DNA of 16,193 bases from a virus. Of the stretch, positions 5,182-9,691 are shown in pieces (the stretch's first letter is position 1; every line of letters starts with the position of its first letter). Location of the stretch: UHGV virus genome UHGV-0197964; one strand, written 5' to 3'. The notes beneath the pieces were generated by a model. The model worked only from the letters and a program-made list of their open reading frames with translations, was not told where the DNA came from and ran no database searches. The position numbers were made by a program, and so were the translations under genes.

Positions 5182-6558
5182 TCATACGTCAGCCCCTTGT
5201 GCATATCGTCTGCCACGCGCAGCAGGTGCATTTGATGCTGTGCAAATCTGTCTGGCTTCATCCTGGTCACACGCAACAAAGTGTCCGTTGCAGAACCGCT
5301 GGTAAACCGTACCAAGTGAGCCAAAACGGTTTTTCGTCACGATGATTTCAGCAAATGGCGCGGCGCTACTGTTCTCGTCATATACAGCTTCCCGATAGAG
5401 CATGATGATTGAGTCTGCGTCCTGTTCAATGCTTCCTGAATCACGCAAATCTGCGTTTGTCGGGCGCTTGTTTGGTCGCTTCTCAACATCGCGTGAAAGC
5501 TGACTCAGGGAAATAACCGGTGTTTTCAGGTCTTTCGCCATCGCCTTCATGCTTCCGGAGATGTGAGCAATTGCGAGGTCGTTGCGGTCTGCTTTCGGCT
5601 TCTCAATCAGGCCAAGATAATCCGCCATGATGAGTGACAGGTTTGGATTTTCCTGTTTGTGCCTTTCTGCGATTGAGCGAATTTCTTCGACCGATAACCG
5701 CGAGGCATCGACTACCCATACATCCAAATCTGCAAGCTGACTCATGCCGTTAGCAACACGCGCCCAGCCTTCGTCATCCATCGATGCAGGATTTCGCAGT
5801 ACGCTAACCGACATTCTCCCGGCGTTGGCAATGCTTCGCTCTGCAATCTGCAATGCGCTCATTTCCATTGAGAAAATCAATACTCCGCGCCGGACGTCAG
5901 AACCAGGAATAACGCGGCTTGCAACGCCTTCGGCAATCTTCAGCGCCAGTTCGGTTTTCCCCATACCAGGACGAGCAGCGATTATCACCAGGTCTTCTGC
6001 GTTCATCCCTCCGGTGATAGCGTCAAGCTCTTCGATTCCGGTCTTCAGGGTATCGGACTCTTCTCCGTTCCTCAGACGCCTGTCAAGCGTGTCAGTGTAG
6101 TCGGTGATGATTTCCCCTAACCGTACAGGTTTAACCTCGTCACGGGGCTTTCTGATAGCTGAAAGACGCTTTACGAGCTCGTCCATCGCCTGACTCGATG
6201 TATCGATGGTTCCGCTCTGAATTGGTTCACGCATTTCATCCATGATTTCCAGCACCAGACGGCGGTGATAGTTATCCGCGACCATTCCGGCATATCCCTT
6301 CAGGTTTGCGGCACTCGGGCAGTTTTTGCTGGTCATCAGGATTGACGTGAAATGCTCCTCTCCGCACGCCTCGGCAACCATCAGCGCGTCGATTAGGTTT
6401 CTGTTTCGCGCCTGCTTGCGGATAACCTCGAAGGCTTTCCGGTAGAGCGGAATTGAAAACGCTTCCGGCTCCAGCGTTGCCAGAACGTCGCTGGCGGTTG
6501 GTGTTAATCCACCAATCAGCAGGCCACCGATAACGCTCGCTTCGATATCCTGTTTCAT
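5182..6558 (-). CDS. DnaB-type replicative DNA helicase (P22 gene 12-like)
   Basis: 458 aa; Walker [12 protein letters not shown] and DnaB C-terminal domain organisation; ATGA overlap with upstream initiator. Confidence 0.9.
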
Positions 6559-7502
6559 GCAATCCCCCTGTCTGCAAACTTCCCTTCCCGAACTCCCGTT
6601 AACGAGTCTTCTCTCAGCAGGTAATCAAAATCAGCCGTCCAGCCCGTGTCGTTGTCTCCGAAGTAAAACGGCTTGGCCTGATGCACAAACGCCCTGACAT
6701 ACGCCCTGAAACCGTCCACGTTTGGCGTTTTCAGTTGCGGGATGATTTTCTTCAGGCGGCGTTTGCGTTTCTCGTTGACCGCAACAGCGTGTGGCAGTCT
6801 GTCACCGACTTCGGTGTTGTAGGCGTTCAGGAAGGATTCGTAGTCGATTCGTTCTGCCTTGCGACGTTCAGGTTTAACCTGCCCATCGCCTCCCCCATTG
6901 GGGGGTAGGGGGGTATTATTTATATTCTTGTTAATACCTTCTTGTTCATGATGTGCGGTTGTTTGTGCGGCTTCATGTGCGCTTTCATGTGCGGCATGTA
7001 CGCTGAAAGCCGCGCCATTGCTGGCTTCATCATGTGCGGAATCATGTGCGGTTGTTTGTGCGGCTTCATGTGCGGGTAAATCGTCCATTTTTTGAGCATA
7101 TTCATGGTAATTTGTGATGGTTATCACACGACCTTTTTGCTTCTCTCCATCAATGGAGATCATCCCCTCTTTCACAAAAACCTGAAGCATCCGCTCAACC
7201 TGATCACGGCTTGCTGGCTTGCCATGTCTGTCGCATAACTGAAGACCTAAATCAGCTGCTGTCACAACCAGTTGACCGGGTTGCAGATGCCATTCATTAC
7301 CTTTGAAATTCGCTTTGTATGGCTTTCTGGCGGCATTCAGGAGAAGGTTTTCCCACAGGGTGCGAAGATAAACATCTTTCGCCCATGACTGTTTCAGAAT
7401 GCTCCGGTACAACGGAATGTAACCAGTTTTCTGGTTCTCCATCCTGTTGCTCCTGCGCTCGTGTGCGGCGCTGAAATCGTAGATTTTTGCTGTATTGCTC
7501 AT
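6555..7502 (-). CDS. replication initiator (O-like / replisome organizer) with His/Ala-rich repeat linker
   Basis: 315 aa; N-terminus [10 protein letters not shown] resembles lambda O start; sits immediately upstream of and coupled to the helicase; internal repeats coincide with the DNA iterons. Confidence 0.75.
6949..7074. repeat. iteron array inside the initiator gene: 31-bp perfect direct repeat (6951-6981, 7044-7074) built from ~9-bp CATGTGCGG-type units
   Basis: Counted directly: about 8-9 copies of (C/T)(A/T)TGTGCGG at ~11-12 bp spacing; flanked at 6915-6940 by a ~85% AT stretch. Confidence 0.7.
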
Positions 7503-7504
7503 AA

Positions 7505-7777
7505 CTACCTGCCTTGACGAAAGACCTTAAGAACATCGTTAAACTGACTTACGGATATGTCTTCTTTGAGAAGCTTTTCCAGAAATGCGTTTGGAATGAA
7601 CGTATATCCCTCCTCTTTTGGTAGAGACGGGAGCAACGCCCTCGCCTCAGCCTTCAGAAGCTCAGTTCTGGCAACTTTCACAAAAGAGATTTGAGTTCTT
7701 TCATCAATGGAACGAAGGAAGCGCAAACGCTTAGCTTCTTTGTGTGTATCAGGTGGATTAAAGCCTTTGTTTCGCAT
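7505..7777 (-). CDS. hypothetical protein (90 aa) immediately upstream of the initiator
   Basis: ATG at 7777 with GAGG ~10 nt upstream; no recognisable motif. Confidence 0.5.
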   Translation of the reverse strand: MRNKGFNPPDTHKEAKRLRFLRSIDERTQISFVKVARTELLKAEARALLPSLPKEEGYTFIPNAFLEKLLKEDISVSQFNDVLKVFRQGR

Positions 7778-7788
7778 ATAATTACCTC

Positions 7789-7866
7789 GTTGGATGTTGT
7801 TAAAATTCCATTTGTATTTGATCAGAACGCTCGGTCTTGCACACCGGGCGTTTTATTTTTTTATGT
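7789..7866 (+). ncRNA. oop: oop-like antisense RNA (~78 nt) with its own -10 and intrinsic terminator
   Basis: Perfect TATAAT at 7777-7782; transcript would start GUUGGAU...; terminator hairpin GCUCGGU/ACCGGGC (7 bp, one G-U) at 7829-7850 followed by a U-rich run to ~7867; resembles recalled lambda oop in length, start and 3' end. Confidence 0.5.
7802..7852 (-). repeat. unused second copy of the cII 3' end, downstream of the HNH gene
   Basis: Minus-strand frame reads RPVCKTERSDQIQMEF-stop, homologous to lambda cII C-terminus (RPAATERSEQIQMEF); shares CCGGGCGTTTT with the active cII 3' end at 8333-8345. Confidence 0.65.
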
Positions 7867-8281
7867 GCTTCCATTTTTCACCTCTGCAAATGGCAGCTAT
7901 ATAATTTGGCGTTACTCCATATTTTTTTGATAATGCCCTTGTGTTGAATAAGGGGTGTCTTGGTATATATTCACTAATGATGTTTCTTACATCATCTTCA
8001 GTTAATTTTGCCCTACCATTCCTGCTTCCAAATGCCTGCCTTTTTCTCTCCACCATGTCATTTGCGTTTTGCTGACTTGTCCCAGCACATAAATGAGAAG
8101 GTAAAATACAAGAAGGATTGTCACATGCGTGACGAATTACTAAGCCATCTATATCTTCAAGCTGGATCCCTTTTGCCACACAATAAGCAAATCTATGAGC
8201 AAATACTTTTTTCCCATTAATCCAAACCCTTCCATAACCCTTGCTGTCCTTTAAACCGCCAAATTCCAAACACGGAGTCAT
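7853..8281 (-). CDS. HNH homing-type endonuclease (HNH_3-like)
   Basis: 142 aa; GYGRVWINGKKVFAHRFAY and HACDNPSCILPSHL motifs typical of phage HNH endonucleases; visibly AT-richer than flanks; own RBS 10 nt after the cII stop. Confidence 0.85.
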   Translation of the reverse strand: MTPCLEFGGLKDSKGYGRVWINGKKVFAHRFAYCVAKGIQLEDIDGLVIRHACDNPSCILPSHLCAGTSQQNANDMVERKRQAFGSRNGRAKLTEDDVRNIISEYIPRHPLFNTRALSKKYGVTPNYIAAICRGEKWKHIKK

Positions 8282-8291
8282 AAGACCATCC

Positions 8292-8585
8292 TTAAAAATT
8301 CATGGTTAACTGATTCTCAGCGAAAATATCCGCCGGGCGTTTTTTATTGGTGAGAATCGAAGCAACTTGTCGTGCCAATCGAGCCATGTCGTCGTCAACG
8401 ACGCCCCATTCAAGAACAGCAAGCAGCATTGAGAACTTTGGAATCCAGTCCCTCTTCCACCTGCTGATCTGCGACTTATCAACTCCCACAGCTTCCGCTG
8501 TCTTCTCAGTTCCAAGCATTGCGATTTTGTTAAGCAACGCACTCTCGATTCTTAGAGCCTCGTTGCGTTTGTTTGCACGAACCAT
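8292..8585 (-). CDS. cII: transcriptional activator CII
   Basis: Internal Met of the ORF gives 97 aa, identical to recalled lambda CII through residue ~84, then a divergent 13-aa tail (ADIFAENQLTMNF). Confidence 0.95.
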   Translation of the reverse strand: MVRANKRNEALRIESALLNKIAMLGTEKTAEAVGVDKSQISRWKRDWIPKFSMLLAVLEWGVVDDDMARLARQVASILTNKKRPADIFAENQLTMNF

Positions 8586-8600
8586 ATGTAAGTATTTCCT
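8560..8600 (+). promoter_or_regulatory. pRE-like promoter with CII site TTGC-N6-TTGC
   Basis: TTGCgtttgtTTGC at 8563-8576 on plus strand overlapping the cII start, oriented toward cro/cI as in lambda. Confidence 0.6.
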
Positions 8601-8664
8601 TAGATAACAATTGATTGAATGCATGCAAATAAATGCATACACCATAGGTGTGGTTTAATTTGAT

Positions 8665-8696
8665 GCCCTTTTTCAGGGCTGGGATGTGTAAGAGCT
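8665..8696 (-). promoter_or_regulatory. nutR (boxA-like AGCTCTTA; boxB GCCCTGAAAAAGGGC)
   Basis: BoxB hairpin at 8665-8679 identical to lambda nutR boxB; boxA-like 8689-8696 with one mismatch. Confidence 0.75.
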
Positions 8697-8704
8697 GGAA
8701 TGTC

Positions 8705-8920: not shown

Positions 8921-9037
8921 ATGCCCTCCATAGTAACCATGAGGCAATAATACGATATGTACTTTTGGAATGCAAACAAAAAATACATCTTGTGCATGGA
9001 TGGTTTTAGTACAGAGCGTAATAATAAGGATATGAAA
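8921..9037. promoter_or_regulatory. right operator region (OR / pR / pRM) with candidate operators
   Basis: Divergent cro and cI starts ~115 bp apart; pR candidate -35 TTGCAT and -10 TATTAT (17-bp spacer) on minus strand; site at 8949-8963 matches the OL palindrome 13/15; weaker sites at 8982-8996 and 9008-9022. Confidence 0.6.
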
Positions 9038-9691
9038 ATGAAATGGTATGAACTGGCTAGATCCAGAATGAAAGAGCTCGGCATAACTCAAGAGAAGTTG
9101 GCTGAAGAGCTTGGTATGACGCAGGGTGGAATTGGTCACTGGTTGCGCGGATCTCGTCATCCATCTCTTGACGAGATTGGTGTGGTGTTTAAATACCTTG
9201 GTATTGATAACGTCTCATTCAACCACGACGGTACATTTTCACCTGTTGGCGAATACTCATCTTCCCCCGTTAAAAAACAATATGAGTACCCTGTTTTTTC
9301 TCATGTTCAGGCCGGGATGTTCTCGCCTGAGCTTAGAACCTTTACCAAAGGTGATGCGGAGAGATGGGTCAGCACAACCAAAAAAGCCAGTGATTGTGCG
9401 TTTTGGCTTGAAGTTGAAGGTAATTCCATGACCGCACCAACAGGATCCAAGCCAAGCTTTCCTGACGGGATGTTAATTCTCGTTGACCCTGAGCAGGCTG
9501 TTGAGCCAGGTGATTTCTGCATAGCCAGACTTGGTGGTGACGAGTTTACCTTCAAGAAACTGATCAGGGATAGCGGTCAGGTGTTCCTACAGCCACTAAA
9601 CCCGCAATATCCAATGATTCCATGCAATGATAGCTGTTCCGTAGTAGGGAAAGTTATCGCCAGCCAGTGGCCTGAAGAGACATTTAGTTAA
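9038..9691 (+). CDS. cI: CI repressor, chimeric: heterologous N-terminal HTH domain fused to lambda-type C-terminal cleavage/dimerisation domain
   Basis: From about [21 protein letters not shown] to the end it is near-identical to recalled lambda CI; N-terminal ~90 aa differ; start ATG 9038 chosen over 9032 on SD spacing. Confidence 0.9.

Follow-up and report, generated by a model that had tools for sequence, protein, structure and literature searches.

What becomes of a cis-antisense RNA when an endonuclease gene comes to lie between it and the gene that it faces? This question is raised by the virus genome UHGV-0197964, whose 16,193 nt, taken whole, are called the window here. The window is the immunity and replication region of an E. 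coli lambdoid (P22-like) prophage, and it holds an oop-like transcription unit beside a gene for an HNH endonuclease. The oop RNA is a textbook cis-antisense RNA; its role in lambda is modest and disputed, the competing views being silencing of cII and control of replication driven by its promoter, pO. A first-pass annotation had proposed that an oop-like RNA of ~78 nt is retained in the window and that, because of the HNH insertion, it is now antisense to the HNH 3′ end instead of cII. Our analysis leads us to hold, with good though not full confidence, that the unit is a true homologue of lambda pO-oop-tO, that an HNH cassette occupies the T-run of its terminator, that oop now faces the end of the HNH gene and not the cII copy in use, and that the oop terminator is the probable target of the HNH lineage.

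A homologue of the lambda oop unit

By homology, the unit in the window is a genuine pO-oop-tO unit and not a chance pairing of a promoter with a terminator. Chance is discounted because the unit is 99-100% identical in dozens of phages and its terminator is homologous to lambda tO. The segment 7740-7853, which covers promoter, RNA body and stem, reaches this identity in dozens of Stx2a-converting phages; in the P22-like coliphages JEP4, HF4s, CUS-3 and Gally the identity is 95-100%, in Salmonella P22-like phages it is ~80%, and the record of phage HK629 explicitly annotates a lambda oop homologue. The unit occupies the stretch from cII to the first replication-module gene, and its strand is opposite to that of the pR transcript. 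Its -10 overlaps the start codon of the replication-side gene, its -35 is weak, and its terminator arms are those of lambda except for the loop and the closing pair. The complementarity to the 3′ end of the functional cII, which amounts to ~50 nt in the lambda type, is lost. A scan of the unit against Rfam returned no family, either at the gathering threshold or at E <= 1; this silence is uninformative because Rfam holds no oop model.

The perfect TATAAT reported by the first-pass annotation at 7777-7782 on the plus strand can be read directly in the sequence (Table 1). The hexamer begins on the final base of the start codon of the 90-aa open reading frame (ORF) on the opposite strand, ORF90, so that the overlap claimed for the two is a single shared base, placed as lambda pO is placed over the O start. 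The candidate -35, TGGATT, is common to all "A-type" oop units of Stx2a and P22-like phages. A second promoter-like site on the plus strand, TTCACC-17-TATAAT (7877-7905, 10/12 matches), lies inside the HNH 3′ region and points towards cII; it is probably a chance occurrence. The scan of the region returned 5 sites where 4.2 are expected by chance, and the -10 of this second site is not kept in the HNH relative at 83% identity (L163).

An intrinsic terminator had been claimed at 7829-7867; the terminator scan places it at 7824-7862, with a 12-pair stem (7824-7854) holding 6 G-C pairs, a 7-nt loop and then ATTTTTTTAT. Folding of 7789-7867 returned this hairpin at -20.6 kcal/mol (z = -3.0), and 0/200 dinucleotide shuffles folded as well. 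The resemblance of the plus-strand RNA to lambda oop, in arms and in the overlap of -10 and ATG, is borne out by the comparison, with a predicted length of ~70 nt. The overlap of the terminator with the HNH stop region and the unused cII tail also stands: the HNH stop codon (7853-7855) and the two preceding Lys codons fall inside the T-run, while the relic cII tail (7800-7853) lies past the HNH stop, is now untranslated and is the main pairing partner of oop.

Table 1. Features of the oop-HNH-cII junction and of the neighbouring genes in the window.
Feature	Position	Strand	Remarks
-10 hexamer TATAAT of the pO-like promoter	7777-7782	+	One-base overlap with the ORF90 ATG (7775-7777, - strand)
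Candidate -35 TGGATT	7754-7759	+	3/6 matches, 17-bp spacer; sub-threshold in the promoter scan
Predicted oop-like RNA, ~70 nt	7789-7858	+	5′ G7789 by lambda analogy (6-7 nt past the -10), 3′ end 7-8 nt past the stem; both ends predicted
tO-like intrinsic terminator	7824-7862	+	Stem-loop 7824-7854, core AACGCTCGGT / ACCGGGCGTT, loop CTTGCAC, T-run TTTTATTTTTTT
Relic cII C-terminal segment, unused, KRPVCKTERSDQIQMEF*	7800-7853	-	Same sequence as the genuine cII 3′ end in phage JEP4
Inserted cassette, 489 bp	7855-8343		Register arbitrary within the 11-bp repeat
Left copy of the 11-bp direct repeat, CCGGGCGTTTT	7844-7854		Terminator 3′ arm plus four T
Right copy of the 11-bp direct repeat, CCGGGCGTTTT	8333-8343		cII continues normally past it with TTATTGGTGAG
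HNH_3 endonuclease gene, 142 aa	7853-8281	-	Final AAA AAA TAA codons supply the distal T-run of the opposite strand
Shine-Dalgarno sequence for HNH, AAGGATGG	8286-8293	-	AAGGA; overlaps the cII stop (8292-8294); 10 nt from stop to ATG
Surrogate cII C-terminus, 13 residues, A-DIFAENQLTMNF*	8292-8332	-	Supplied by the cassette; terminator 5′ arm absent
cII in use, 97 aa	8292-8585	-	Pfam Phage_CII 2.7e-45; RefSeq annotation of the identical locus; oop overlap lost
ORF90, 90 aa	7505-7777	-	First gene past oop on the pR transcript; in the place of O, its start overlapping pO
O-like initiator	6555-7502	-	pR operon
DnaB-like helicase	5182-6558	-	pR operon
cI	8957-9691	+

An HNH cassette in the terminator T-run

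That an HNH insertion had separated oop from the cII in use, as first proposed, was confirmed by alignment with phage JEP4. The 1203 bp of window 7400-8602 align with 714 bp of JEP4 in two pieces at 99.9% identity, 489 bp being absent in JEP4, whose empty site reads ...GAACGCTCGGTCTTGCACACCGGGCGTTTTTTATTGGTGAGAATCG... (empty-site sequence GAACGCTCGG..CCGGGCGTTTTTTATTGGTGAG). On this alignment the cassette sits in the tO T-run and, at the same time, within the last codons of cII. Read on the minus strand, it consists of a surrogate cII tail, a stop codon, a ribosome-binding site and the HNH ORF. Judged from its sequence, the cassette repairs both of the functions that it interrupts, supplying a new 13-codon end with a stop for cII and a U-tract for tO. 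For the latter, the HNH Lys-Lys-stop codons (AAAAAATAA) read TTATTTTTT on the plus strand, whereby the distal U-tract of tO is rebuilt. In the relatives of this HNH gene an equivalent AGGAG or GGAGG ribosome-binding site is found at the cII stop, and direct repeats analogous to the 11-bp repeat of the window occur in two of the lineages described below (L167 and L168).

The end of the cII in use has a T-run of its own (8340-8345), preceded only by the 3′ arm CCGGGCG (copy 8333-8345). No hairpin was found before this T-run and the local fold is no better than that of shuffled sequences (z = -0.65), in keeping with the earlier reading of a T-run without a terminator stem. Alignment of the surrogate tail to the relic one is weak (TTAAAA-TTCAT...TCAG...CCGGGCGTTTT); the former looks like a diverged duplicate of the cII tail that no longer has the hairpin's 5′ arm. 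Between oop and the cII in use only ~11-13 nt of complementarity are left, all within the oop terminator arm. The predicted duplex of the two reaches -36.8 kcal/mol, against -33.5 +/- 4.4 for shuffled targets and -129 kcal/mol for the cognate site. A separate feature of this region is the sequence ATTCTCA(G) in the surrogate tail (8313-8320), which is complementary to TGAGAAT (8351-8358) past the T-run, so that a stem of 8-9 bp encloses the T-run. In the mRNA this stem would form a hairpin just where cII ends, and relatives show no obvious counterpart.

An old HNH lineage at one site

The HNH protein matches Pfam HNH_3 with 28.9 bits (cut-off 24.8) and PHROG HNH families at 3e-28, and a sequence search of the PDB with it gave no meaningful match. 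Its catalytic domain is intact, I49-P56 (except residue 52), H63 and N72 being invariant in five lineages. A database search returned relatives at 83, 71, 63 and 57% identity, called tier 1 here; a second tier at 47-54%, from Citrobacter, Serratia, Enterobacter, Pantoea, Cronobacter and Lelliottia, was recovered by profile search. The genomic context was checked in nine relatives (83, 71, 63, 57, 53, 52, 50, 49 and 47%). In all of them HNH directly follows a Phage_CII gene, starting 0-10 nt past its stop codon, and a replication module of varying type comes next. The window and these nine relatives, which span 47-100% identity and come from Escherichia, Serratia, Cronobacter, Citrobacter, Pantoea and Enterobacter, are referred to below as the 10 lineages.

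In a rough neighbour-joining tree, drawn without support values, the cII-linked HNH proteins form one clade. The sister group of this clade (P0039, 43% identity) is located near cIII/RecT in the early-left operon, the outgroups (<=44% identity) sit elsewhere, and more distant relatives are found in T7-like or other contexts. The four tier-1 genes, each of exactly 142 codons, differ at a proportion of 0.78-0.92 of synonymous sites (pS, saturated) and at 0.10-0.26 of nonsynonymous sites (pN). Such a saturated pS together with a low pN indicates that the protein is old and under purifying selection. Since the lineage is found at the cII/tO site in all members checked, the oop terminator is its probable homing target.

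The geometry of the window is also found in the other lineages. Every one of them (10/10) has a strong terminator on the opposite strand, at or within the HNH 3′ end, with a stem of 11-15 pairs followed by a T-run. A good -10 (CATAAT, TATAAT or TAGAAT) lies over the start of the next ORF in all lineages except that of Citrobacter (L178; GATATT, 4/6), and at that place the promoter scan called a full promoter-like site in L167, L168, L169, L176, L177 and L181. The stem sequences differ among lineages (AACGCTCGG, AATCCCTGAG, AACCCTTGG, AGGCCTTTGA and others). Compensated double changes were counted at 6/10 stem positions. The stems were lined up manually according to the individual folds, as MAFFT had set L169 one column off among six terminators, and their pairing is therefore partly true by construction; what is informative is that a hairpin of at least 10 bp with a T-run stands at the same place in every lineage.

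The two tiers are set differently against this terminator. The stop codon of the tier-1 HNH genes is placed within the T-run exactly as in the window, to the nucleotide. The tier-2 ORFs extend across the entire hairpin, in a frame that varies by lineage, and there oop overlaps 35-50 nt of HNH coding sequence, which resembles the overlap of oop with cII in lambda. The in-use cII tails of the relatives keep a 3′-arm-like sequence and a T-run, with no comparable hairpin except in Serratia. There, in the prophage of Serratia liquefaciens ATCC 27592 (L176, 2467-2483), the in-use cII tail keeps a 7-pair hairpin followed by the T-run, which may be a second antisense terminator upstream of HNH.

Two further observations concern individual lineages. 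In the relative at 57% identity (L169; metagenome contig ERZ23879646 NODE_1236, 1080-1540) the HNH gene has a premature stop, and the remaining frame (..ISKIIRGKNWKRRNEK..) runs on as far as the antisense terminator. The gene seems to be an endonuclease copy in decay, beside an oop terminator and a -10 that are both intact. The ORF directly past HNH and oop in L167 (3516-4121) and L181 (3035-3673) encodes a T5orf172/MUG113-domain protein, putatively of nuclease type, and the cII-replication junction may therefore collect several mobile genes.

Distribution and mobility of the cassette

The cassette was found at 99.6-100% identity in 6/5426 complete E. coli genomes; 1318 genomes match one or both flanks. 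It was absent from all of the 120 sampled IMG/VR contigs that contain the tO sequence (0/120); four other IMG/VR contigs carry it. The surrogate-tail DNA occurs in IMG/VR only on three contigs with the complete cassette. Among 50,697 phage genomes there is no HNH relative at >=60% identity, and the best matches (<=47%) are free-standing endonuclease genes of T7-like phages; the GTDB representative genomes hold no close relative either (<=41% identity).

The same cassette, with identical junctions, occurs in four combinations of flanks: that of the window; one with a different cII allele (M160133 / L127); one with a lambda-type oop body and a different replication module (W46 / L128); and one with a different gene upstream of pO (L141). 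The breakpoints lie at the edges of short blocks conserved in all lambdoid types (~30 bp on the left, ~22 bp on the right). As expected of a homing gene, the element is therefore sporadic, has near-identical empty sites (99-99.9% flank identity) and appears at the same conserved target in different genetic backgrounds. The 120 IMG/VR loci around tO (L006-L125) are mosaic within tens of bases even among empty sites, where two oop body types, two loop types (TTGCCG and TCTTGCACA) and several cII alleles are met in nearly all combinations. It seems that the conserved terminator serves lambdoid phages as a junction for recombination. Because the region is mosaic even among empty sites, flank recombination and true homing cannot be told apart by sequence. 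All carriers of the cassette have the T(C/T)TTGCACA loop; this linkage is expected under any model, since at empty sites either loop type is freely met with either oop body type.

Such a distribution bears on whether the HNH gene is mobile at all. It might instead be a domesticated gene of the early operon, inherited vertically at this position, whose likeness to an insertion is secondary. The strong purifying selection, the constant length of 142 aa, the position kept across genera and a direct repeat that is atypical for homing would all fit. However, the sporadic occurrence described above (6/5426, 0/120 and none at >=60% among 50,697 genomes), the identical cassette in four mosaics with breakpoints at the edges of the conserved terminator, and nearest relatives outside the clade that are free-standing endonuclease genes of T7-like phages make domestication improbable.

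The mosaic flanks suggest a different objection, namely that oop is a functionless passenger, either because the insertion is recent or because its flank is repeatedly re-imported from HNH-free phages. The flanks are indeed 99-100% identical to those of HNH-free phages, the oop region is mosaic at the scale of tens of bases, and the relic cII tail still reads intact. Nevertheless, all 10 lineages of an old clade keep a strong terminator, all but one keep a good -10, their stems are different yet compensated, and the unit is kept even in L169, whose HNH has a premature stop. We regard a mere passenger as a poor explanation, with no better prospects than domestication.

What oop faces now and what it may do

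The pR operon runs on the minus strand in the order cro, cII, HNH, ORF90, O-like and DnaB-like. The cII and HNH genes are contiguous (10 nt apart), and the scan shows neither a terminator nor a promoter-like site on the HNH strand between them. With cII, HNH, ORF90 and the replication genes on one pR transcript, oop would still pair with that mRNA, ~440 nt downstream of the cII stop. The claim that oop is antisense to the HNH 3′ end holds for the HNH stop codon and about one HNH codon (~6 nt); for the rest, oop is complementary mostly to the untranslated 75-nt spacer between HNH and ORF90.

On the proposed working, oop would pair with the pR transcript immediately 3′ of HNH, and RNase III would cut the duplex, as in lambda, exposing the 3′ end of a cro-cII-HNH fragment. 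The HNH message would be degraded first and cII only secondarily or indirectly. Such a rewiring of oop control onto the endonuclease, which the first-pass annotation had also suggested, is plausible from the arrangement of the locus, and it gains plausibility from the geometry kept in 10/10 related lineages, with HNH running 35-50 nt into the terminator in the distant ones. Two effects in cis would be kept: the firing of pO against pR transcription entering the replication genes, and the stopping at tO of leftward transcripts that would otherwise run antisense through HNH, cII and cro and into cI. These functions of pO and tO would be untouched, as the insertion lies on the cII side of the terminator. 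In addition, the new CII tail may alter the stability of CII.

The cis roles of pO and tO explain the retention of oop equally well as a function of the RNA (PMC3985674), and they might be all that matters: pO would damp pR transcription into the replication genes, tO would block leftward transcripts (antisense to HNH, cII and cro, sense to cI), and pairing of the RNA would be without consequence. Lambda pO, through its activity alone, reduces transcription from pR into the replication region, and normal replication requires that activity, both independently of oop RNA in trans (PMC3985674). The distance from pO to ORF90, O and ori is unchanged in the window, again because the insertion is on the cII side, and the rebuilding of the U-tract by the Lys-Lys-stop codons in tier-1 lineages points to selection for termination itself. 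On the other hand, a perfect duplex of ~70 bp with the pR mRNA can still form, which would allow effects at the RNA level, and the overlap of 35-50 nt between oop and the HNH ORF in the distant lineages is like that with cII in lambda. A purely cis-acting unit is therefore a possibility that we take seriously without expecting it.

Alternatively, oop may still regulate mainly cII, from afar, cleavage of the duplex past HNH destabilising the cro-cII-HNH fragment and preserving the role of oop in the choice between lysis and lysogeny. The single transcript, with cII and HNH only 10 nt apart and no terminator between them, would permit this, and lambda oop, which overlaps cII by 52 nt, is described as acting through RNase III to promote decay of cII mRNA (PMC5869508; PMC12197685). 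However, ~440 nt of HNH message would have to be degraded before cII is reached, and oop has no extended complementarity to the cII in use. Control of cII would be altered in any case, since the surrogate tail changes the C-terminal 16 residues of CII, which direct proteolysis by FtsH (PMC5869508). We consider regulation of cII at a distance doubtful, and slightly more so than an action in cis only.

Several points weigh against our reading of a retained oop that now faces HNH at the target of its lineage. The -35 is poor (3/6) and the promoter scan made no call at the pO-like site, an omission that follows from the poor match; support for the promoter therefore comes from homology and conservation and not from a consensus score. 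The promoter, the RNA ends and any cleavage by RNase III in the prophage are assigned by analogy, and the endonuclease activity and its target site are predictions. As only ~6 nt of the HNH ORF are overlapped, a direct effect of oop on HNH translation is doubtful. The 11-bp direct repeat is atypical of classical homing. The flanks recombine very finely with those of HNH-free phages, so that the presence of oop beside HNH could reflect continual re-import and not selection. Finally, a search of IMG/VR for empty-site counterparts of the distant lineages L163 and L167 returned none, or only unrelated terminators.

These points leave the reading as a whole likely. A bolder version of it would make the overlap of terminator and cII tail the dedicated homing site of an old, self-repairing HNH lineage, which brings a surrogate CII end and Lys codons that rebuild tO and which has captured oop as its antisense governor. 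We put this forward tentatively; the odds are rather against it.

The prophage around the junction

Window positions 7400-8700 are 100% identical to the chromosomes of E. coli EC11, CH10508 and MS14385. ORF90 has no Pfam match and hits only phrog_2519 (function unknown); it is widespread among Stx2a and P22-like phages. Within the O-like gene, iteron-like direct repeats at 6945-7087, whose units end in CATGTGCGG at a spacing of ~12 nt, encode a His/Ala-rich linker of the O-like protein and are probably the replication origin. The prophage also carries two neighbouring tRNA genes on the minus strand, tRNA-Thr(TGT) and tRNA-Asn(GTT), at 1299-1374 and 1380-1454.

Novelty and meaning

The oop unit itself, the free-standing HNH_3 endonuclease genes and one antisense RNA over a homing endonuclease gene (CfrI/F-CphI of S-PM2) were already known. 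Our main new result is an HNH lineage that always follows cII and has the antisense terminator at its 3′ end, in 10 lineages from several enterobacterial genera. In the searchable literature we found no description of an HNH gene at the cII/oop junction of lambdoid phages. Nor did that literature contain an endonuclease lineage dedicated to the overlap of the oop terminator with the cII tail, duplicating as well as replacing the cII tail, rebuilding the U-tract and having oop face the endonuclease.

Prophages that bear this HNH gene are natural separation-of-function alleles, in which oop is split from cII while its promoter and terminator are intact, and their comparison with near-identical empty-site phages would show which effects of oop need the overlap with cII. 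As the exchanged tail of CII falls within the 16 C-terminal residues by which FtsH proteolysis is directed, carriers may also differ in the frequency of lysogenisation. The locus is also an unusually tidy case of a mobile element, a homing gene at an overlap of genes on opposite strands that comes with replacement parts for both. Should the site be a dedicated homing target and oop be captured, the lineage would amount to a natural experiment on an oop that has lost its tie to cII and is kept all the same; oop and pO would then be selected for something besides pairing with the cII coding sequence. The significance would rise if oop were shown to govern the endonuclease, or to be selected without the cII overlap.

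Comparison with known systems

The closest reference is lambda pO-oop-tO, which likewise separates cII from the first gene for replication and runs opposite to pR. In lambda the -10 (CATAAT) overlaps the O start codon, as TATAAT overlaps the ORF90 ATG in the window, and the start G stands 7 nt past the -10, compared with 6 nt (G7789) in the window. Lambda tO reads AACGCTCGG-TTGCCG-CCGGGCGTTTTTTATTGGTGAG and runs into cII codons; the window's terminator shares these arms (AACGCTCGG / CCGGGCGTT) and also has a T-run, for an RNA length of ~70-77 nt, with a longer loop (7-9 nt, against 4-6 nt in lambda). The 5′ body of the window oop belongs to another sequence type, only the 3′ ~50 nt aligning to lambda at 84-92%. 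The essential difference lies in what the RNA faces: 52 nt of cII coding sequence in lambda (PMC5869508), the relic tail and ~6 nt of HNH in the window.

Nearer in sequence are the oop units of the Stx2a and P22-like coliphages (JEP4, CUS-3, HF4s and Gally), which at 95-100% identity over 7740-7853 represent the empty site. That such a unit is transcribed in a P22-like prophage is shown by the Salmonella prophage BTP1, in which OOP RNA was seen by RNA-seq (PMC7067206). In all these phages, unlike the window, the RNA overlaps the functional cII 3′ end and there is no HNH gene.

As for the endonuclease, it resembles the free-standing HNH_3 genes of T7-like phages in being a small ORF with its own ribosome-binding site, without intron or intein, present sporadically and at a highly conserved sequence. 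The "intronless homing" of the T4 seg and mob genes offers a comparison for free-standing endonucleases. Unlike these genes, however, the HNH gene of the window lies inside a coding sequence that doubles as the terminator of an antisense RNA, and it brings replacement parts for both; its cassette is flanked by an 11-bp direct repeat and its lineage is confined to one site in temperate lambdoid phages.

For an antisense RNA over a homing endonuclease gene, the parallel is CfrI of cyanophage S-PM2, a cis-antisense RNA that also covers the end of a neighbouring host-type gene, linking psbA to the homing endonuclease gene F-CphI (Millard et al. 2010, summarised in PMC12197685). CfrI differs in its length (~225 nt), in belonging to a lytic cyanophage and in having no homology to oop; in the window a pre-existing regulatory RNA would have been captured by the insertion. 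Finally, Escherichia phage Dewey (PQ850600; L175, 2233-3118) also has an HNH gene in the cII-replication junction of a lambdoid phage. Its HNH protein, unrelated and of 266 aa, is encoded between pO and the replication initiator gene, so that the -10 (CATAAT) overlaps the HNH ATG, while the oop-cII overlap and tO are intact. The split of oop from cII seen in the window is therefore not the sole way to occupy this junction.

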